Source of the DNA: an uncultured Candidatus Saccharibacteria bacterium
Lineage (GTDB): Bacteria; Patescibacteriota; Minisyncoccia; Phycocordibacterales; PALSA-1337
Direction: 5' to 3'
DNA: 64,000 nucleotides
NCBI GenBank assembly: GCA_964532285.1
Contig: CAZHHB010000004.1
Span: forward strand, 425 to 64,424
The translations under genes were made by a program, and so were the position numbers. Positions 1,014 through 8,994 of this stretch are shown here, one piece after another. Below the pieces are notes generated by a model. The model saw only the letters and a list, made by a program, of their open reading frames with translations. It was not told the DNA's origin and did no database searches. Numbering within the stretch: position 1 is the first letter of the stretch; each line of letters begins with the position of its first letter.

Positions 1014-2285
1014 ATGGATCCATTGAAACAATCTACAAATCAAATACCGCCCGAACAGACACATGTATCAAATCCCAACCCAATTCCAGCCCCAACTCCA
1101 ACTCCGACTCCGACTCCGACTCCAATTGTCACTCATTCTTTCATACCACCGACTCCGCCGGTGTATGCTCCTAGTTCGACCCAACGACTGGGTCAGTCTT
1201 TTCAGAAATCAAATTCATTTTCAAATCCTGATACCAAGTCTGAACTTCCTAGAATACCAGCGAATATTCCGGTGTTCATACCAGATATGCCACGTCGGAG
1301 TTCCAACAAATGGTTTGCGGGTATTAGTATCGCCATCTTACTTCTATTGGCAGGCCTGATCTACGGAACTTATGCCCTTATCATTTCACCCTCACGGGCT
1401 ATTCCGACAGCCTTCTCCAGCATCAATTCATTGTCAAAGAAACATGTTGGTTTTCTAGTCACTCTCGATTCCGATGATCCACAGATGAGTAGCCTGTCGT
1501 TTTCCGTGACAAGCGATATAGACAAGGCGAATCCAAATTCTACAGAAACACAATCAAGAGTTTATCTAGAATCCAAAGGCATTTCGGTTGCGGGAGATTT
1601 TGTCCTTGTTAATGGAGTGATCTACGGTCAACTAACGAATTTGCCAGATATGCTCGTAAAACCATTGAGTAAGTATATGAATCACTGGTATTCTCTAACA
1701 GTGGATGTCATAAAGAGATTGGCGAAGATAGATGATGCCTCCTTGAATGCTGTATCTCAACAAGGGTTAAGTTCTATCAGTGGCATTTATGAGAGGTTGT
1801 ATCTTGAGGGTGTATTCAAGAATGCTAACTTCGCCGGATTTACTAGTTACAACGGCAAGCTTGTCAGAAGGTATTCTGTAGATATAGACAAGGATACCCT
1901 GGCTGTACTTGTGAGCAAGTTCGCATCAAACAAAAATTCTCCAGACAGCACCCTCGTCAACGAAGGAGTGTCTTCTGTTAGTAACAGTTTGAGTTCCATG
2001 GAATTTCGTCCGGTTATAATAACGGTTGATCTATTATCTGGATCGCTCGAAGAGATCAAGTTGGAGACGCACATGTCTATACCAGCCACCAGATTTACTC
2101 CGGCTACAGATGGTGTGGTGCGATTCATCCTGACTTATGGTCCTGTGGAAGATGGTAAGGTCATCTCGGCTCCACAAGATGCGGAATCGCTGGACAATCT
2201 TCTCGTGGGTATGTTTACAAGACCGGCAATCGGCACATCTACAGTCCAGTCATCTACAACAAAACCCAAGAGCACGACTAGATAG
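1014..2285 (+). CDS. Hypothetical membrane-anchored protein with Pro/Thr-rich N-terminal linker
   Basis: ORF 945..2285. ATG at 1014 lies just after the upstream stop at 1009. Contains a 'PTPTPTPTPTP' low-complexity stretch, one TM segment 'WFAGISIAILLLLAGLIYGTYALII', and a long extracytoplasmic domain of unknown family. Confidence 0.5.
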   Translation: MDPLKQSTNQIPPEQTHVSNPNPIPAPTPTPTPTPTPIVTHSFIPPTPPVYAPSSTQRLGQSFQKSNSFSNPDTKSELPRIPANIPVFIPDMPRRSSNKWFAGISIAILLLLAGLIYGTYALIISPSRAIPTAFSSINSLSKKHVGFLVTLDSDDPQMSSLSFSVTSDIDKANPNSTETQSRVYLESKGISVAGDFVLVNGVIYGQLTNLPDMLVKPLSKYMNHWYSLTVDVIKRLAKIDDASLNAVSQQGLSSISGIYERLYLEGVFKNANFAGFTSYNGKLVRRYSVDIDKDTLAVLVSKFASNKNSPDSTLVNEGVSSVSNSLSSMEFRPVIITVDLLSGSLEEIKLETHMSIPATRFTPATDGVVRFILTYGPVEDGKVISAPQDAESLDNLLVGMFTRPAIGTSTVQSSTTKPKSTTR

Positions 2286-2323
2286 TGCCTAAAGTCTGAA
2301 ATTATGTTATAAGTAGGAACTAT

Positions 2324-2397
2324 GGTGCCTATGGTGTAATGGTTAGCACTGAGGTTTGTGGAACCTCCAGTCCGGGTTCGAATCCCGATAGGCACCC
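2324..2397 (+). tRNA. tRNA-His (anticodon GTG) with encoded G-1
   Basis: Cloverleaf folded by eye: G-1 + acceptor GTGCCTA/TAGGCAC + discriminator C; anticodon stem GAGGT/ACCTC; loop TTGTGGA (anticodon GTG); T-loop TTCGAAT. CCA is not fully encoded (CCg). Confidence 0.8.
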
Positions 2398-2403
2398 CGA
2401 ATA

Positions 2404-2428
2404 AAAATCCGCGATGAGCGGATTTTTT
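2404..2428 (+). terminator. Rho-independent terminator-like hairpin after tRNA-His
   Basis: Stem ATCCGC / GCGGAT with loop GATGA, followed by TTTTTT. Confidence 0.5.
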
Positions 2429-2561
2429 GAGGGGTGCCTAAGCGAGCCGACTGCTCGGCTCGCGGTCGGGATTCGAAAAGGCTGAACATATTTTCGACAC
2501 TTCGTAGCTCGACCGAAGGGAGAAGCGGAGAAGGGGAGAAAATGTGAAGCCTGTACTGAAG

Positions 2562-2582
2562 CTGTAAGCTTCGAATCCCGAT
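2562..2582 (+). repeat. 21-nt exact direct repeat of the tRNA-His 3' end (copy of 2377..2397)
   Basis: TTCGAATCCCGATAGGCACCC occurs at 2377-2397 (T-loop to acceptor of the tRNA) and again at 2562-2582. There is no complete tRNA around the second copy. This is the att-like signature of integrase-mediated insertion into a tRNA 3' end. Confidence 0.85.
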
Positions 2583-2610
2583 AGGCACCCAATTTTGTTA
2601 TACTAAATGT

Positions 2611-2820
2611 ATGGAAAAACGTTCCCGTTACGTCCGTGGTTATGTTGGTATTATCATTATCTTGATAGTCGTAGTTGTCGTAGTATTCTTGATGCTCGAT
2701 CAATACAAGAGTCAGGGTCTCATTCCCAGAGGAACACAAACTGATGAAACTACAGGGACATCTGCAGACCATGTGACCTTGATTTTTGGTCAAAAAAGTG
2801 CTATGTTTGCAACATGTTAA
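2611..2820 (+). CDS. Small hypothetical single-TM protein (uncertain)
   Basis: 69-aa ORF with a hydrophobic core 'IIIILIVVVVVVFLML'. It overlaps the hicB start by 7 nt and has no recognisable family. Confidence 0.25.
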   Translation: MEKRSRYVRGYVGIIIILIVVVVVVFLMLDQYKSQGLIPRGTQTDETTGTSADHVTLIFGQKSAMFATC

Positions 2821-3062
2821 ACAACGCAGAATACAAAATTGAGTATGAAGTAGATAAGGAAACCGCTCAGGTTACCGCTACTATTCCAGAACTAAACCAT
2901 CTATCTTCCTTTGGTGACTCTTTCGCCGAAGCGGAGTCTAATGTCAGAGAGGCCGCTCTCGGTTATTTTGAAGTACTTACAAAGGAACAACACGAAATCC
3001 CAAAGCCAGCATTTCACACGGAAGGTACATATCTCAAAATATTTATTCCTAAAATAGCATAA
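2814..3062 (+). CDS. hicB: HicB-family antitoxin (UPF0150), short form without DNA-binding domain
   Basis: 'YKIEYEVDKETAQVTATIPELNHLSSFGDSFAEAESNVREAALGYFEV' matches the HicB/UPF0150 N-terminal pattern. It lies immediately upstream of hicA. Confidence 0.65.
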   Translation: MLNNAEYKIEYEVDKETAQVTATIPELNHLSSFGDSFAEAESNVREAALGYFEVLTKEQHEIPKPAFHTEGTYLKIFIPKIA

Positions 3063-3067
3063 ACCTC

Positions 3068-3295
3068 ATGGGTAAACTCGGACGACTTTCAGCGAGAAAG
3101 GTTATCAAAAAACTAAAGAAAGTTGGCTTTGCTGAAACTCATCAGCGTGGTAGTCATCTGTACCTAAAAAGTGAAGACAGGACAAAAATTGTGACCGTGC
3201 CCATTCATGGATCAAAAGATATTCCAATTGGAACTCTTTATAATATTGTCGTGCGACAAGCAGGTCTGTCGGTAGATGAATTTAATAACTTATAG
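3068..3295 (+). CDS. hicA: HicA-family mRNA interferase toxin
   Basis: 'KVIKKLKKVGFAETHQRGSHLYLKSEDRTKIVTVPIHGSKDIPIGTLYNIVVRQAGL' is a near-textbook HicA (YcfA-like) sequence, including the catalytic Gly-Ser-His. Confidence 0.8.
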   Translation: MGKLGRLSARKVIKKLKKVGFAETHQRGSHLYLKSEDRTKIVTVPIHGSKDIPIGTLYNIVVRQAGLSVDEFNNL

Positions 3296-3321
3296 TAAAG
3301 TTTTGATAGCGACCCCTAACT

Positions 3322-3780
3322 TTAATTAAAAGCCATTTTGATATCTCTGATAATTTCATCAAGCTGATGATTGCTTTTGATGTAGTACTTACTTATGCCC
3401 AGACTAATGTAGGATTGTATAGTTTTCGCCCCCTCACTGTTTGATACCACGAAGATGGGGATTTTCTTCCATCGACCGCCGTTGGCTTTGATTTTCTTGA
3501 TGAGATCAAGACCGTTTTCTTTGCCCAAGAGATTGTGATCAAGCCATATTGCATCAACCTGTTCCAAATTTTCAAGATAGTCGAGCGCTTGCCTGATACT
3601 GCCCGCACTGATGATGCCTAAACCCTTTTTTTCAAGATTTGCATTGAAAACCTGATCAACACTTCGTGCAGTTACGACATCAAAGCCGCTTTTCTCAAGC
3701 TTCGCATTGACTACCTCTAGTAGGGGACGCTCATCTTCTATGACCAAGATAGTTTTCTTTTTTTGTATTTGTTTTTTCAT
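3322..3780 (-). CDS. Response regulator, stand-alone receiver domain
   Basis: 'KTILVIEDERPLLEVVNAKLEKSGFDVVTA...IWLDHNLLGKENGLDLIKKIK...IPIFVVSNSEG' carries the CheY-like phospho-acceptor Asp and the conserved T/K positions. Confidence 0.75.
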   Translation of the reverse strand: MKKQIQKKKTILVIEDERPLLEVVNAKLEKSGFDVVTARSVDQVFNANLEKKGLGIISAGSIRQALDYLENLEQVDAIWLDHNLLGKENGLDLIKKIKANGGRWKKIPIFVVSNSEGAKTIQSYISLGISKYYIKSNHQLDEIIRDIKMAFN

Positions 3781-3795
3781 ATTATTTATTATTAT

Positions 3796-5238
3796 TTATT
3801 TAATTTTTTTATTTTTCTTCTTACCCATCCCTCGGATGGGCAATGTTACATAAAAGGTGGTACCGAAGTTTTCTCGTGGTGATTTGAACCAGATTTTTCC
3901 TCCAGAGTTCTCCACGATTGATTTTACAATGTAGAGACCGAGACCTGTCCCATCGGTATCCATTCCTCTCACATTGTCCGCACGAAACAGCTTTGTGAAT
4001 ATTTTATCCTGCTGATTTCTGGGAATACCATATCCAGTGTCAGAGATTTTGATTTGAATTTTATCCTTCTCTGATAATGAAAGCATAAATTTTATTGCAC
4101 CATCTTTGGGAGTGTATTTTACCGAGTTTGATAGGATATTCTGCATAACCATTCGTAGAAGTTTCGGATCTGCTTGTATGTATGAAATTTTTTTCTCACA
4201 TGAAAATGAGAATCTTATTTTTTTCGTATTAATTTCTGGTTTCTGCTCATTTATTACACTTAACGCTAGTTTACGAATATCAGTTGTTTTGGGCTCAATC
4301 ACAAATGTTCCTAGTTCAAGACGAGAGACATCCAGAAGAGCATTCACAAGCTCAACCATTCTTTGGTTGCTACGGTATACCTCATCCAAATATTTTTTTT
4401 GTTTTCTATTTAGTTTTCCAACATCTCCAGCCAGAAGCATCTCTGTATACCAATTGACGGTAGAGAGTGGGGTACGAAGTTGATGTGATGCGAGTGAGAC
4501 AAATTCGGTCTTCGCCTTATCGACTGCTCGCTCGTTCGTGATATCTCGGAAAACCTTGATTGTCCCCATGACCTTTTTGTTGAGGATGACCGGCGTCACA
4601 GTGATTGCTACGGGTATCTTTATGCCATCTCTTCGCACATTGAAGTAAGTGGTTCCTGTCGTGGTAATGCCGTCTTTCAAGGCCATGTTTACTGGATGTT
4701 TCTCTGACAGAATGGGCGCACCCCTTTTGTCTTCCAAAAGAGCTATTTCGGAAAAATGTTTCCCCAAAACTTCATCATTTTTATTATCAAGTATTTTTTG
4801 AGCAGTTTTATTTATTAGGATGATGTTTCCTCTTTCATCGGTTGCCATGAGACCATCACCTATGGAAAGTAAAATCGCTCCTTCTTTTGCACTGACAATT
4901 TCTAGGCTTTTTGTGCGTTCAAGGACTTTTCTTTCCAATGTCTCGTGAGATTTCTTGAGTTTTTCTGCCGTCACCACCAGTTTTCGTCGAACACCCTCTC
5001 TCTCTCGGGCAGTTACAGCGAGTTTCTCCGCTGTTGTTGCTAATTTTGCCGCAGTCACAGCAAGTTTGCGCCTGACGCTTTCTTTTTCTCTAGCAGTTAT
5101 GGCGAGTTTCTCCGCTGTTGCTGCCAGCTTTGCCGCGGTCACAGCCAGCTTGCGTCGGACATCTTCTTTTTCTCTAGCCAAAATCCTCAGATTGAGGATA
5201 ATGTCATCGGATGTGGAAATAGTAGTTTTTTTATTCAT
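3796..5238 (-). CDS. Sensor histidine kinase: coiled-coil repeat N-terminus, PAS, HisKA, HATPase_c
   Basis: The H-box 'SHQLRTPL', N-box 'NILSNSVKYT' and G-boxes 'DTGYGIP' / 'GTGLGLYIV' are present. A PAS-like segment ('ILLSIGDGLMATDERGNIILINKTAQ') precedes the HisKA domain. The N-terminus is made of tandem 26-aa repeats. Confidence 0.8.
   Translation of the reverse strand: MNKKTTISTSDDIILNLRILAREKEDVRRKLAVTAAKLAATAEKLAITAREKESVRRKLAVTAAKLATTAEKLAVTAREREGVRRKLVVTAEKLKKSHETLERKVLERTKSLEIVSAKEGAILLSIGDGLMATDERGNIILINKTAQKILDNKNDEVLGKHFSEIALLEDKRGAPILSEKHPVNMALKDGITTTGTTYFNVRRDGIKIPVAITVTPVILNKKVMGTIKVFRDITNERAVDKAKTEFVSLASHQLRTPLSTVNWYTEMLLAGDVGKLNRKQKKYLDEVYRSNQRMVELVNALLDVSRLELGTFVIEPKTTDIRKLALSVINEQKPEINTKKIRFSFSCEKKISYIQADPKLLRMVMQNILSNSVKYTPKDGAIKFMLSLSEKDKIQIKISDTGYGIPRNQQDKIFTKLFRADNVRGMDTDGTGLGLYIVKSIVENSGGKIWFKSPRENFGTTFYVTLPIRGMGKKKNKKIK
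4960..5175 (-). repeat. Tandem ~78-bp coding repeats (about 3 units) at the histidine-kinase N-terminus
   Basis: The amino-acid unit 'RKLAVTAAKLA(A/T)TAEKLA(I/V)TAREKE(D/S/G)VR' repeats. The corresponding DNA repeats are visible at 4980-5200. Confidence 0.7.
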
Positions 5239-5803: not shown

Positions 5804-5855
5804 TTGACTTACTGGTGTTTCGAGAGTAGTTTTTGGTCAGGTTTGGGAATGGTTC
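5804..5855 (+). promoter_or_regulatory. Sigma70-like promoter (TTGACT-17-TAGTTT) plus 29-nt leader; copy 1 of a duplicated promoter/leader
   Basis: TTGACT at 5804-5809, a 17-nt spacer, then TAGTTT at 5827-5832. The stretch 5827-5855 'TAGTTTTTGGTCAGGTTTGGGAATGGTTC' is identical to 9083-9111. Confidence 0.5.
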
Positions 5856-5886
5856 CCAATGTAGCACAAAGAAAGAAAAACAAAAT

Positions 5887-7245
5887 ATGCAAACAAACGA
5901 AACGCAGTCGGCTGGCATACAGCCAATGAGCGAAGGGAAGACCAAACAAATCTTTCCCATCCCTGGCAGTCCTGCCAGAGTCGTAGTCAAATCGAAAGAT
6001 GACATCACTGCTGGTGACGGTGCCAAACACGACATTATCGAAGGTAAAGCCGCCCTGTCCACGCGGACAACCTGCAATGTGTTCCGACTCCTCCGGGCAT
6101 GCGGTATCCCTGTCGCCTTCGAGGATCAGGATGGCCCCACGGAATTCATCGCCGACAAGTGCACCATGTTGTCGTACGAGGTCGTGATCCGGCGCGAAGC
6201 CCACGGCTCATATCTAGATCGGAACCCTCATCTGCCGAAGGGACATGTCTTCCCGAATTTGGTCCTGGAGTTTTTCCTCAAGACTCATGGCAAGATCTGG
6301 ATCAATCCGGTGACCGGACGAAGTTATGAACTGCAGAAGGATGACCCGCTGATGGTGTCTGACCATCAAAAAGGTTGGATTGAGTTGTATTACCCGGGGC
6401 ATACTTCCGAAGAAAGGAAGATTGCTTCGAAGGGGCAACTCGTCGGGCAAAAACCCTTCCTCGTCCTGTCTGAAGAGGAAATTTTCTTCCGTGGAGATGA
6501 GGGGTCGCTCATGGCGCGCATGGGAAACATCGCTCGCCAAGCTTTCCTGGTTCTGGAGAAAGCGTGGCAGATCCAGGGGCGCAGGCTCGTGGACTTCAAG
6601 GTTGAGTTTGGTATCAACACTGAAGGACTGCTTCTGCTCGCCGATGTCATTGACAATGACTCCTGGCGGTTGATTGAACCTTCCGGCGGGTACATGGACA
6701 AACAGGTGTATCGCGACGGCGGGGATCTGAATACGGTCACGGCGAAGTATCGCGAAGTCGCGGATTTGACTGATCGGTTCGAAATTCCTCCCCAGCGTCT
6801 CATCATCTGGTGTGGGTCTGACAAGGATCACTTCACGGCAGTCGAAGATCTTTGGTTGAAGCTTGAACCGAAGCCACAGTTCCAATCCCTGCCGATCACC
6901 TGCTCGGTGCACAAACAGCCGGCCTTGGCGTACAAAATCCTGCAGCATCATCTGCAGGAGGGGCCGTACGATTCGGTTATTATCGCCTATATCGGTCGAA
7001 GCAATGGCGCTGGTCCGGTCCTGGCGGCGAATTGCACAGTTCCGGTCATCACCGTGCCGGCGGGATACAAGGAATTCCCCGAAGATGTTTGGTCGTCACT
7101 CCGCACTCCGAGCAATGTGCCGGTCATGACGGTGCTCGAGCCGGCAAATGCCGTACTTGCGGCTCTGCAGATCCTGGCGATGCGCAATCCGAGCATCTAT
7201 GCCGCCCTGCGTTTCGAACAGGAAAAGCGGTTGGTGAATGTTTAA
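5887..7245 (+). CDS. purC/purE: Bifunctional SAICAR synthetase (PurC) / AIR carboxylase (PurE-like) fusion
   Basis: The N-terminal ~300 aa carry the PurC motif 'TAGDGAKHDIIEGKAALSTRTTCNVFRLLRACGIPVAF'. The C-terminal ~150 aa ('VIIAYIGRSNGAGPVLAANCTVPVITVP') resemble PurE, the AIR-carboxylase fold. The reading frame opens at TTG 5833; the first ATG is at 5887 and an alternative ATG is at 5926. The region is GC-rich relative to its flanks. Confidence 0.75.
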   Translation: MQTNETQSAGIQPMSEGKTKQIFPIPGSPARVVVKSKDDITAGDGAKHDIIEGKAALSTRTTCNVFRLLRACGIPVAFEDQDGPTEFIADKCTMLSYEVVIRREAHGSYLDRNPHLPKGHVFPNLVLEFFLKTHGKIWINPVTGRSYELQKDDPLMVSDHQKGWIELYYPGHTSEERKIASKGQLVGQKPFLVLSEEEIFFRGDEGSLMARMGNIARQAFLVLEKAWQIQGRRLVDFKVEFGINTEGLLLLADVIDNDSWRLIEPSGGYMDKQVYRDGGDLNTVTAKYREVADLTDRFEIPPQRLIIWCGSDKDHFTAVEDLWLKLEPKPQFQSLPITCSVHKQPALAYKILQHHLQEGPYDSVIIAYIGRSNGAGPVLAANCTVPVITVPAGYKEFPEDVWSSLRTPSNVPVMTVLEPANAVLAALQILAMRNPSIYAALRFEQEKRLVNV

Positions 7246-7410: not shown

Positions 7411-8994
7411 ATGCTTAACCTATCATTGCCGGGTAACCCCCGGTACCAACCGAAAGACCTACAGAAATATTTCGGCTACGACAACCTCTTCAGGTGTGTG
7501 GTCGAAGTGGAGATTGCAACCATGAGGACGCTGGCGGAGATCGGAGTCATTCCTCCTGAGGATATCGCTCTCCTCACGCCGGAACTTGAACAGAAACTCC
7601 TGGCGATCACGACGACCGAAGTCGACAGGGTCGAGAATACCGACACTGAAGAATTCGGCAAGAAGACCAAGCATGACATCCGCGCCTGGGTTGTGATAGC
7701 AAAGTCTCGGGTGCCAGAAGGTCTTCGCCGCTGGATTCACATTCCGCTTACAAGCTATGACGTCCTTGATACGGCTCGGTCGCTTCAGTTCTCTCGTGCT
7801 CACACAGAGGTGGTTAAACCCTTGGCTGATAAAGTCATCAAGCATTTCATTGAGCGGACTAGGACTTTCGCTTCGGTCAAGCAGATCGGTCGTACGCATG
7901 GTCAGCATGCGCTTCCAATCACAGTCGGATTCTGGTTCGCCACGATCTTGAGTCGGATTCTCCGGAATATTGAAAGTGCTAATATGGCAGCTTGTGGATT
8001 GGTAGGCAAGATCTCCGGTGCTGTCGGCGCGTACAATGCGCAGAAGGCGGTTGGGATCACATCAACATGTGCTCTGAACAGACTTGAAGCTATTCAAGCC
8101 TTCATGAGTAATCATGGGGTCACCAGTACAAACGATATTCCAGCGGGGATGATGAGTCGGATCATGTCAGAGCATCCAACTTTTGAAGAATTGGTATTGA
8201 AAAAGCTCGGCCTTAAACCGGCGCCGATCAGTACCCAGATCCTGCCACCCGAACCGCTCGCCGATTATCTGTTCGCATGTGTGAAGTTGTCGGCCTCCCT
8301 CGGCCAATTCGGTCGGGACGGTCGTAACCTCATGCGGAGCGAGATCGCTGAGCTCTGTGAACCGTTCGACAAGGGTCAAGTCGGTTCATCAACCATGGCG
8401 CACAAGAGGAACCCGATTAATTTCGAGAACCTTGAAAGCACATGGCTCAAGAACAAGAATGAGTTCGGCAAGGTCCTGGATGTATTCCTAAGTGATCATC
8501 AACGGGACCTGGTGAACAGTGCCGTTGCTCGGGATTTCCCGACAATCGTTGTAAATCTGGTTTCGCAACTGAACACTCTCTTGCGCGGCGACCCGCCATT
8601 CATCGCTCGGATCTCTGTTGACCAGGAAGCCTGCAAACGCAATCTGGAGCTTCAAGGTGTGGAGATTCTCGCAGAGCCAGTGCAAATAGCCCTTCAGATG
8701 GCAGGCTATACGGGAGATGCTCACAAGGTTGTAAACGAGCAGGCGCTTCCGCTCGTCAAACAAGGCAATTCCTGGTTGGGTGCGATCAAAAAGATTGCTG
8801 AAGATCAGAACGACCAAGGATTGTTGGAGGCCAGATCGAAATTACCGGATGATGTCATGTCGCTGATCGAAGATGTTGGCGGCCATTCCGAAAATTACAC
8901 TGGTCTGGCGGCCGAAAAAGCTCTGGAGATTGCCAAGGCTGCGGAAAACTATCTGAACGCTCCGGCTGTCATGGCTGCGTTTCTCGGTGTCTGA
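7411..8994 (+). CDS. purB: Adenylosuccinate lyase (PurB), fumarate-lyase superfamily
   Basis: Contains the fumarate-lyase signature 'GSSTMAHKRNPINFENL' (GSSxMxxKxN). Overall length and similarity fit ASL. GC-rich. Confidence 0.85.
   Translation: MLNLSLPGNPRYQPKDLQKYFGYDNLFRCVVEVEIATMRTLAEIGVIPPEDIALLTPELEQKLLAITTTEVDRVENTDTEEFGKKTKHDIRAWVVIAKSRVPEGLRRWIHIPLTSYDVLDTARSLQFSRAHTEVVKPLADKVIKHFIERTRTFASVKQIGRTHGQHALPITVGFWFATILSRILRNIESANMAACGLVGKISGAVGAYNAQKAVGITSTCALNRLEAIQAFMSNHGVTSTNDIPAGMMSRIMSEHPTFEELVLKKLGLKPAPISTQILPPEPLADYLFACVKLSASLGQFGRDGRNLMRSEIAELCEPFDKGQVGSSTMAHKRNPINFENLESTWLKNKNEFGKVLDVFLSDHQRDLVNSAVARDFPTIVVNLVSQLNTLLRGDPPFIARISVDQEACKRNLELQGVEILAEPVQIALQMAGYTGDAHKVVNEQALPLVKQGNSWLGAIKKIAEDQNDQGLLEARSKLPDDVMSLIEDVGGHSENYTGLAAEKALEIAKAAENYLNAPAVMAAFLGV

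Follow-up and report, generated by a model that had tools for sequence, protein, structure and literature searches.

A conserved fold that carries antisense and sense copies of a tRNA 3' end: a candidate tRNA-trailer element of Patescibacteria

What does it mean when the 3' end of a tRNA gene is repeated a short distance downstream of that gene? We considered this question for the tRNA-His locus of an uncultured Candidatus Saccharibacteria bacterium (GenBank assembly GCA_964532285.1, contig CAZHHB010000004.1), in a stretch of 64,000 nucleotides, the whole of which is called the window below; coordinates refer to it unless a relative is named. A direct repeat that runs from the T loop to C74 is the geometry produced by integrase elements at tRNAs, and an earlier note on this locus had taken the interval between the two copies for what was left when an element was excised or decayed, with a neighboring toxin–antitoxin pair as its cargo. 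Our analysis points to a different answer, namely that the second copy is one strand of a folded element at 2432-2590, which most likely belongs to a small, previously undescribed family situated directly 3' of tRNA genes, and on the same strand as them, in Patescibacteria. As for its nature, we consider the chances to be even that it is a co-transcribed, structured trailer RNA comparable to rtT of Escherichia coli, with one arm antisense to the end of its tRNA and another mimicking it.

The repeat itself is not a product of chance: the 64-kb window contains two exact copies of TTCGAATCCCGATAGGCACCC, at 2377-2397 and 2570-2590, and 100 dinucleotide shuffles, scored with up to 3 mismatches allowed, gave an expectation of none. 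There is no third match in the window with up to 3 mismatches, nor, when a distant attR (right attachment site) was looked for, any other match of at least 11 nt to the 3' region of the tRNA. The earlier observation of the repeat is thus partly confirmed: the last 21 nt of the tRNA do recur exactly, and no tRNA body surrounds the second copy according to both ARAGORN and Rfam, yet that copy had been placed at 2562-2582 with a gap of 164 bp and actually begins 8 nt further to the right, leaving a gap of 172 bp. The arrangement is not an assembly artefact, for an independently assembled contig of a different sample (L002) matches the region with 100% identity. The tRNA gene has its G-1 at 2324 and ends in CACCCCG, the full CCA not being encoded. 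It is the sole call of its kind made by ARAGORN and Rfam in the window; ARAGORN found no second tRNA or transfer-messenger RNA (tmRNA), and Rfam searches of window positions 1500-4000 and of positions 850-1500 of one relative (L004, see below), at E-values up to 10, returned only tRNA and noise.

The key to the interval is a feature that the earlier note overlooked: an exact inverted copy of the same 21-mer, divided into GGGTGCCTA (2432-2440) and TCGGGATTCGAA (2466-2477) by a 25-nt insert. The insert contains a perfect 9-bp hairpin, P2, with stem arms at 2442-2450 and 2455-2463, and it splits the inverted copy exactly at the nucleotide boundary between acceptor stem and T stem. What had been taken for a degenerate T-arm-like hairpin (GGTCGGGATTCGAAAAGG) forms no hairpin at all and is one half of this inverted copy. 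Given a split inverted copy followed by a sense copy, 2432-2590 folds into a branched structure of helices P1 to P5 (Table 1). The 5' arm is exactly complementary to the 21 nt at the end of tRNA-His, from the T loop to C74, which the 3' arm repeats in the sense orientation; the two pair in P3 (2465-2474/2573-2582) and P1 (2432-2439/2583-2590), such that a continuous 21-nt 3' strand lies against the split 5' arm and the distal junction bears P4 and P5. This pairing rebuilds the stacked acceptor and T stems of tRNA-His, with G-1:C73 preserved, and P2 exits at the very point from which a real tRNA sends off its D and anticodon arms. The minimum free energy (MFE) of 2432-2590 is -83.7 kcal/mol, against -51.8 +/- 4.0 for shuffled sequences (z = -7.9), and a covariance model of the family matches the window at 2428-2597 with 143 bits. 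P4 is built on three basal helices (2479-2483/2548-2552, 2486-2489/2542-2545 and 2492-2495/2538-2541), among which lie the positions of a GA/GA internal loop, and the 3' strand of P5 overlaps the first 3 nt of the second 21-mer copy. The two hairpins, one of them a terminator, that the earlier note had described in the interval are accordingly better counted as several helices: the spacer hairpin at 2403-2427, P2, P4 and P5. The first of these resembles an intrinsic terminator by eye (a UCCGC/GCGGA stem followed by six U's), although a simple terminator scan does not call it.

Table 1. Features of the tRNA-His locus in the window
Feature	Position	Strand	Evidence
tRNA-His(GTG) gene	2325-2398	+	ARAGORN; Rfam RF00005, 57.2 bits
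First copy of the 21-mer, TTCGAATCCCGATAGGCACCC, tRNA positions 54-74	2377-2397	+	Exact-match search
Spacer hairpin AAAAATCCGC-GATGA-GCGGATTTTT, bidirectional, terminator-like	2403-2427	+	Repeat search, alignment
Whole structured element, 159 nt, two three-way junctions	2432-2590	+	MFE, covariance model, pair covariation
5' arm, reverse complement of the 21-mer (GGGTGCCTA, TCGGGATTCGAA), split by P2	2432-2477	+	Repeat search, sequence
P2, 9-bp hairpin GCGAGCCGA-CTGC-TCGGCTCGC	2442-2463	+	Repeat search; pair counts
P4 arm	2479-2552	+	RNAalifold; pair counts; repeat family
P5 hairpin GAAGCT-GTA-AGCTTC, carrying the invariant CTGTAAG	2558-2572	+	Alignment, RNAalifold, pair counts
3' arm, second copy of the 21-mer	2570-2590	+	Exact match, fold, alignment
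69-aa open reading frame (ORF), one hydrophobic segment, outside the conserved unit	2611-2820	+	ORF call; no Pfam family
hicB-like gene, 82 aa, outside the conserved unit	2814-3062	+	PF15919, 25.9 bits, slightly below its cutoff (27)
hicA, 75 aa, outside the conserved unit	3068-3295	+	PF07927, 69.4 bits

A scan of one genome per GTDB species recovered the 21-mer in 27 DNA stretches, 26 of which are titled as Patescibacteria or simply as uncultured bacteria, and all but one of the matches lie inside tRNA-His genes. The element follows tRNA-His in three lineages: that of the window, that of L004 (part of contig CAZKSQ010000001.1), also from Candidatus Saccharibacteria, and a third represented by the contigs L037, L038 and L039. 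In the window, which corresponds to the metagenomic contig k141_1315824 of ENA ERZ27247837, the tRNA is preceded by genes for a cob(I)alamin adenosyltransferase and a membrane protein, and the third lineage was recovered through homologues of the former, by means of which tRNA-His loci were sought in 11 look-ups that yielded this one new element-bearing genome. The adenosyltransferases of the three lineages are 69-72% identical (71% between the window and L004); the membrane protein is present only in the window and L004, with an identity of about 30%. As a synteny probe, the upstream 446-aa protein retrieved only itself and one truncated relative. The block that extends from the tRNA to the end of the element is conserved in all three lineages up to ...GGCACCCA, where similarity ends abruptly (A2591), and the flanks beyond this block do not align between lineages. 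Between the window and L004, in particular, the DNA 5' of the tRNA is unalignable and the anticodon stem of the tRNA differs by compensatory changes; the spacer hairpin is nearly identical in these two, and L039 lacks such a hairpin, its A run and T run merely flanking a loop. The interval and the second copy are an intact unit in three lineages whose flanking proteins are 30-72% identical, and not the leavings of an excised element.

Certain peculiarities of the individual copies may be recorded here. The T stem of the window's tRNA-His contains a C49.A65 mismatch (CCGGG/CCCGA, 2372-2388), whereas the mimic helix of the element, as well as the tRNA-His of L004 and L039, has the matched TCGGG/CCCGA. 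The apical part of P4 (2496-2537) is enlarged in the window copy only and holds purine-rich 8-nt repeats; the purine-rich run at 2518-2548, with its 8-nt periodicity (GGGAGAAG CGGAGAAG GGGAGAAA), leads into an ATG-TGA start-stop and is without counterpart in L004 and L039. A coding function within the element was considered and set aside upon inspection, the window offering only that ATG-TGA and the short ORFs of L004 and L039 not being conserved. A likeness of the spacer hairpin or P2 to the hammerhead ribozyme or to domain V of group II introns was likewise rejected, the motifs in question differing between copies on inspection.

The family appears to extend beyond tRNA-His. L004 carries a second full copy at 1294-1439, which scored 126 bits with a covariance model built from the three His-linked copies and 155 bits with a refined model (R2). 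It retains the same core with other arms, GTGCTCCA...GCAGGAATCGAA pairing with GATTCCTGCTGGGAGCAC, such that P1 and P3 are still paired, and its GATTCCTGCTGGGAGCAC arm looks, from its sequence, like the 3' end of another tRNA; in its spacer, too, an A run and a T run merely flank a loop. This copy lies ~3 kb upstream of tRNA-His, with genes for an IrrE-like peptidase and an XRE protein directly to its left. The first 50 nt of L037 (1-50) match the 3' part of a copy similar to the second one of L004 in a covariance-model search. Finally, a weak and degenerate copy (E about 0.01-0.03) follows a tRNA-Leu(GAG) on the minus strand of L026 (7646-7790); its 3' arm, TCAAGTCCTCTCTCGC, repeats the 3' end of that tRNA-Leu, and a terminator-like hairpin then follows. 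In L013 the same tRNA-Leu has a terminator alone after it, which looks like an empty site. Scans of viral contigs returned no match to the 21-mer, the split inverted arm or the core motif of the family, and a scan of JGI metagenomes with GGTGCCTAAN{12,42}GTCGGGATTCGAA gave two chance matches only. We also observed that the contigs of three relatives end exactly at or within the tRNA-His gene (L013 1-21, L026 2-22 and L032 3027-3055); a repeat or palindrome of the kind that the element represents may have caused these breaks in assembly.

Further evidence comes from the manner in which these copies have diverged. RNAalifold predicts 53 pairs from the three His-linked copies, 14 of them with compensatory double changes. 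When all four full copies are considered, 96.7% of the cells are paired and double changes are found in 23 of the 53 pairs, across all six helices, a value that none of 500 shuffles reached and to which slid controls, at 2-4, do not come close. P2 (helix 2) shows double changes at 4 of its 9 pairs with 100% of them paired, and P5 (helix 6) at 3 of 6. Among the His-linked copies alone, P2 has changed at up to 5 of its 9 pairs. Indeed, P2, P4 and P5 drift while the arms hold: the 42 arm nucleotides are nearly invariant in these three copies, the sole difference being the first base of the 3' arm (T in the window, C in L004 and L039), and the 5' arm retains the GAA complementary to the UUC of the T loop even in a copy whose 3' arm no longer has the corresponding bases. 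Several unpaired motifs are also invariant, including AAGC before P2, the GA/GA internal loop, UGUA in J4/5 and CUGUAAG in P5, and the loop of P2 is CUGC or CUUC in every copy above a stem that varies by compensatory substitutions. A conserved and covarying interior held between nearly fixed arms is not the behavior of a decaying scar, and it has the conserved fold with compensatory changes by which structured non-coding RNAs are generally recognized. The earlier note had itself named a second copy belonging to a functional RNA as fatal to its reading; a second copy embedded in a conserved functional structure is essentially what was found.

The strand on which this structure is displayed can also be addressed. 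G.U pairs occur on the plus strand, in P4 of L039 and in P2 of the second L004 copy; inspection of the four aligned copies, as opposed to a systematic count, showed no A.C mismatches in their helices; and the element is co-oriented with the tRNA in every copy whose upstream tRNA is known. Taken together, these observations favor a single-stranded molecule with the sequence of the plus strand.

The mechanism that we propose on this basis begins with transcription of the element together with tRNA-His, through read-through of the spacer hairpin. In the precursor, the antisense arm would capture the 3' half of the tRNA, and the mimic arm would compete for the antisense arm. The tRNA-like helix might then let the enzymes that process tRNA ends (RNase P and RNase Z) free a discrete RNA of ~160-190 nt, as for rtT of E. 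coli, and the conserved core (the P2 loop, the GA/GA internal loop, and UGUA in J4/5 and the P5 loop) could serve to bind a partner. In the predicted fold of the whole precursor (-139.5 kcal/mol), the antisense arm pairs with the 3' half of the tRNA and the distal mimic arm with its 5' acceptor strand; when the precursor is cut after the antisense arm, the predicted fold again lacks the acceptor and T arms of the tRNA. The sense, antisense and sense segments can thus form alternative pairings. Given the fold of the element, the direct repeat would be a working part and not a scar, and HicBA merely adjoins it in this genome.

Several considerations weigh against a trailer RNA. A terminator-like hairpin separates the tRNA from the element in both the window and L004, and a simple scan found no promoter-like site for the element; expression would consequently have to depend on read-through from the tRNA promoter. 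Compensatory changes and G.T wobbles suit a folded single strand of DNA equally well. The sample is small, with four full copies from three genomes and two partial or degenerate ones (L037 1-50 and that of L026), and about 27 other tRNA-His lineages, many of which have the identical 21-mer, are without the element, so that only 3 of about 30 examined carry it; this absence shows that the element can be dispensed with and is patchily distributed, as would be expected of mobile or selfish DNA. Moreover, ARAGORN and Rfam find no intact tRNA upstream of the second copy in L004 (850-1500), where only a sequence ending in GGAGCAC precedes the A-run/loop/T-run spacer; in view of the adjacent IrrE-like and XRE genes, an island may have been inserted there between a tRNA and its element. 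An insertional origin is plausible, and the element may have a role as a folded site in single-stranded DNA.

Among known systems, the closest analogue that we tested is the rtT/RttR unit of the tyrT-tyrV operon, described by Bosl & Kersten 1991 as cited in PMC2965389. The latter, together with bioRxiv 10.1101/2024.07.17.603846, contains passages in which a link of RttR to the stringent response is proposed. Both rtT and our element are non-coding units that directly follow a tRNA gene, share its strand and end in a copy of the 3' end of that tRNA. In the E. coli genome (NC_000913.3), the units after tRNA-Tyr are ~180 bp long and each ends in 19-24 nt identical to the tRNA 3' end; there are three full tandem units, one of which is annotated as RttR, a 171-nt non-coding RNA. 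The rtT units hold a 10-nt internal complement of the tRNA end (GGGGAAGGAT against ATCCTTCCCC), whereas the element holds the full 21 nt. They are tandem and found in Enterobacteria, whereas the element occurs once per tRNA and in Patescibacteria. The fold of the element differs too, with its antisense arm split by a hairpin at the acceptor/T-stem junction and its arms retargeted between copies, and the Rfam rtT model has no match in window positions 1500-4000 at E-values up to 10. By analogy, then, the element resembles the by-product RNA of a tRNA operon without being a homologue of rtT. A more distant likeness is to tmRNA and the Y-RNA-like YrlA, in which a coaxial helix like that of the acceptor and T stems is combined with a replaced anticodon or D region; in contrast to these, the helix of the element runs on through the T loop, no CCA is encoded, and the arms are literal copies of the neighboring tRNA.

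What the trailer RNA has chiefly to be weighed against is a DNA-level explanation, in which the locus is a miniature, non-autonomous mobile module of ~193 bp (spacer, antisense arm, core and one attachment-site copy) that inserts at tRNA 3' ends, its arms folding in single-stranded DNA to rebuild a double-stranded target for a recombinase supplied in trans. We regard this as unlikely, though it accounts for a good deal: direct repeats of the segment from the T loop to the tRNA 3' end bound the unit, whose distribution among relatives is patchy; at least 2 copies with different arms coexist in one genome (L004); the arm pairs match the adjacent tRNA, be it His, Leu or the third, tRNA-like sequence; both of the flanking sense copies are possible pairing partners of the antisense arm, as if the unit had once been circular; synteny breaks exactly where the second copy ends; and other mobile DNA is found at the tRNA-His flank in relatives. 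There are precedents for such folding in integron attC sites and in attP of the CTX phage, where inverted arms likewise rebuild a duplex, structure is conserved more than sequence and the center is variable (69-93 nt in the element). Unlike these, the element lacks site motifs of the IntI or Xer type, is not close to a recombinase and forms no cassette array, and its arms copy a tRNA end; its ends also seem unlike the R'/R'' boxes of attC. Nor does any copy have a recombinase beside it or occur in the viral contigs scanned, and the His-linked copies have diverged in step with their hosts, in a manner that resembles vertical descent. No mobilization system is known for a gene-less circle of 193 nt. 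In comparison with miniature inverted-repeat transposable elements, for which terminal inverted repeats, a short target-site duplication and many dispersed copies are typical, inverted arms are present but equal the end of the adjacent tRNA; one copy was counted in the 64-kb window and two within 8 kb of L004, and the viral contigs contained none.

A more speculative proposal, which we hold to be rather improbable, sees in the family a programmable RNA or folded DNA that matches tRNA ends, comprising a P2/P4/P5 core with antisense and sense arms that are exchanged according to the upstream tRNA (His, Leu and the third) and acting as a guide or decoy. As a guide, it would direct recombination or insertion machinery to the ends of tRNA genes, and this would account for the exact coincidence of the synteny break with its 3' edge; alternatively, it would titrate the cognate tRNA or control its maturation in hosts with minimal regulatory repertoires.

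It is also conceivable, at about the same low level of likelihood, that the element has no function and is a self-maintaining palindromic duplication, arising by fold-back or template-switch replication at the tRNA terminator, with its arms kept identical by gene conversion. The succession of a sense copy, an A run, a hairpin, a T run and an antisense copy is what fold-back priming would leave, most relatives dispense with the element, and the rtT repeats of E. coli are usually viewed as a by-product of unequal recombination. However, such a duplication gives no reason for the unpaired core motifs (AAGC, the CUKC loop, GA/GA, UGUA and CUGUAAG) to be invariant, for compensatory evolution in P2, P4 and P5, helices that are unrelated to the tRNA, or for a second copy that holds the core with different arms. 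These features point to selection on the fold and not on the repeat alone.

We return, then, to the attL/attR (left and right attachment-site) reading with which the locus was first approached, in which the repeats mark an excised or decayed tyrosine-integrase element and hicBA is its leftover cargo. This is by now largely refuted, and we think it very improbable. It draws on the 21-bp direct repeat of the tRNA 3' end, on a toxin–antitoxin module directly downstream and on downstream content that differs between genomes, and in the repeat from the T loop to the 3' end and the variable genes beyond the locus there is a true resemblance to the attachment scars of tyrosine-integrase islands, including derivatives that have lost their integrase. 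The tiny hydrophobic ORF and the hicB-hicA pair are indeed present after the second copy as first described, a HicA domain that Pfam assigns firmly standing beside a HicB-like antitoxin that it assigns weakly. Yet this pair lies outside the repeats, whereas the variable genes of attachment-site islands lie between them, and it is missing downstream of the element in L004 and L039, as is the 69-aa ORF. In L004 the element is followed by unrelated ORFs and then by genes for DUF1801 and Fic proteins, and in L039 by a different ORF. Comparison with relatives therefore bears out a region beyond the second copy that varies between genomes, with HicBA confined to the window, and not hicBA as the cargo of an islet. 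Among the genes called within ~6 kb, to which the search for integrases was confined, there is neither an integrase nor a fragment of one; they encode HicB, HicA, response regulators, a histidine kinase and Pur enzymes. No further repeat of at least 11 nt occurs in the 64 kb. The 172 non-coding bp between the repeats are not a varying or decaying foreign interior, being conserved and covarying, and a scar would leave unexplained the full inverted copy of the attachment segment, split by a hairpin. What survives of the scar or mini-islet is thus the tRNA 3'-end repeat and the variable downstream DNA; the decayed element and the membership of hicBA do not.

It is equally improbable that the element acts in cis on the genes beyond it, as a leader, attenuator or insulator. 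In favor of such a role, 20 nt separate the element from the ORF that follows it in the window, and a stable stem with AAUUUUGUU after it could weaken transcription running through from the tRNA. Against it, the genes that follow are unrelated in each genome and begin 20 nt to several hundred nt away, conservation does not continue past the element, and the identity of the arms with the tRNA is left unexplained.

Independently of the element, the 3' flank of tRNA-His is an insertion hot spot in this phylum. Downstream of the tRNA-His of L005, at ~1100-1430 on the minus strand, we observed an insert of ~300 bp with a small GIY-YIG-like ORF on the reverse strand; the inverted repeat ACACCTATGTTTTT/AAAAACATAGGTGT marks its borders, after which GTAGGCACCCC partially repeats the tRNA-His 3' end. 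In L045 (4611-6286) and L046 (4327-6002), a 537-aa large serine recombinase with Resolvase, Recombinase and Zn_ribbon_recom domains is encoded on the minus strand, abutting or overlapping the 3' end of tRNA-His, where a mobile element has probably integrated. Within the window itself, the segment 5833-8994, with an ORF for a PurC/PurE fusion (5833-7245) and one for PurB (7411-8994), has a GC content of 0.51-0.54 compared with ~0.42 for the rest, and may be foreign.

When the 3' end of a tRNA is found directly repeated, the usual conclusion is that something has integrated there. In the present case the repeat belongs to a conserved fold, and such repeats can consequently mislead programs that call islands. 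If the element is an RNA, it would constitute a new structured non-coding RNA class for Patescibacteria, whose non-coding RNAs are poorly charted, and one that joins antisense and mimic copies of the 3' end of its own tRNA. Such an arrangement predicts a switch in the folding of the precursor and a processing route like that of rtT, and the exchangeable arms hint at a recognition module that can be retargeted.

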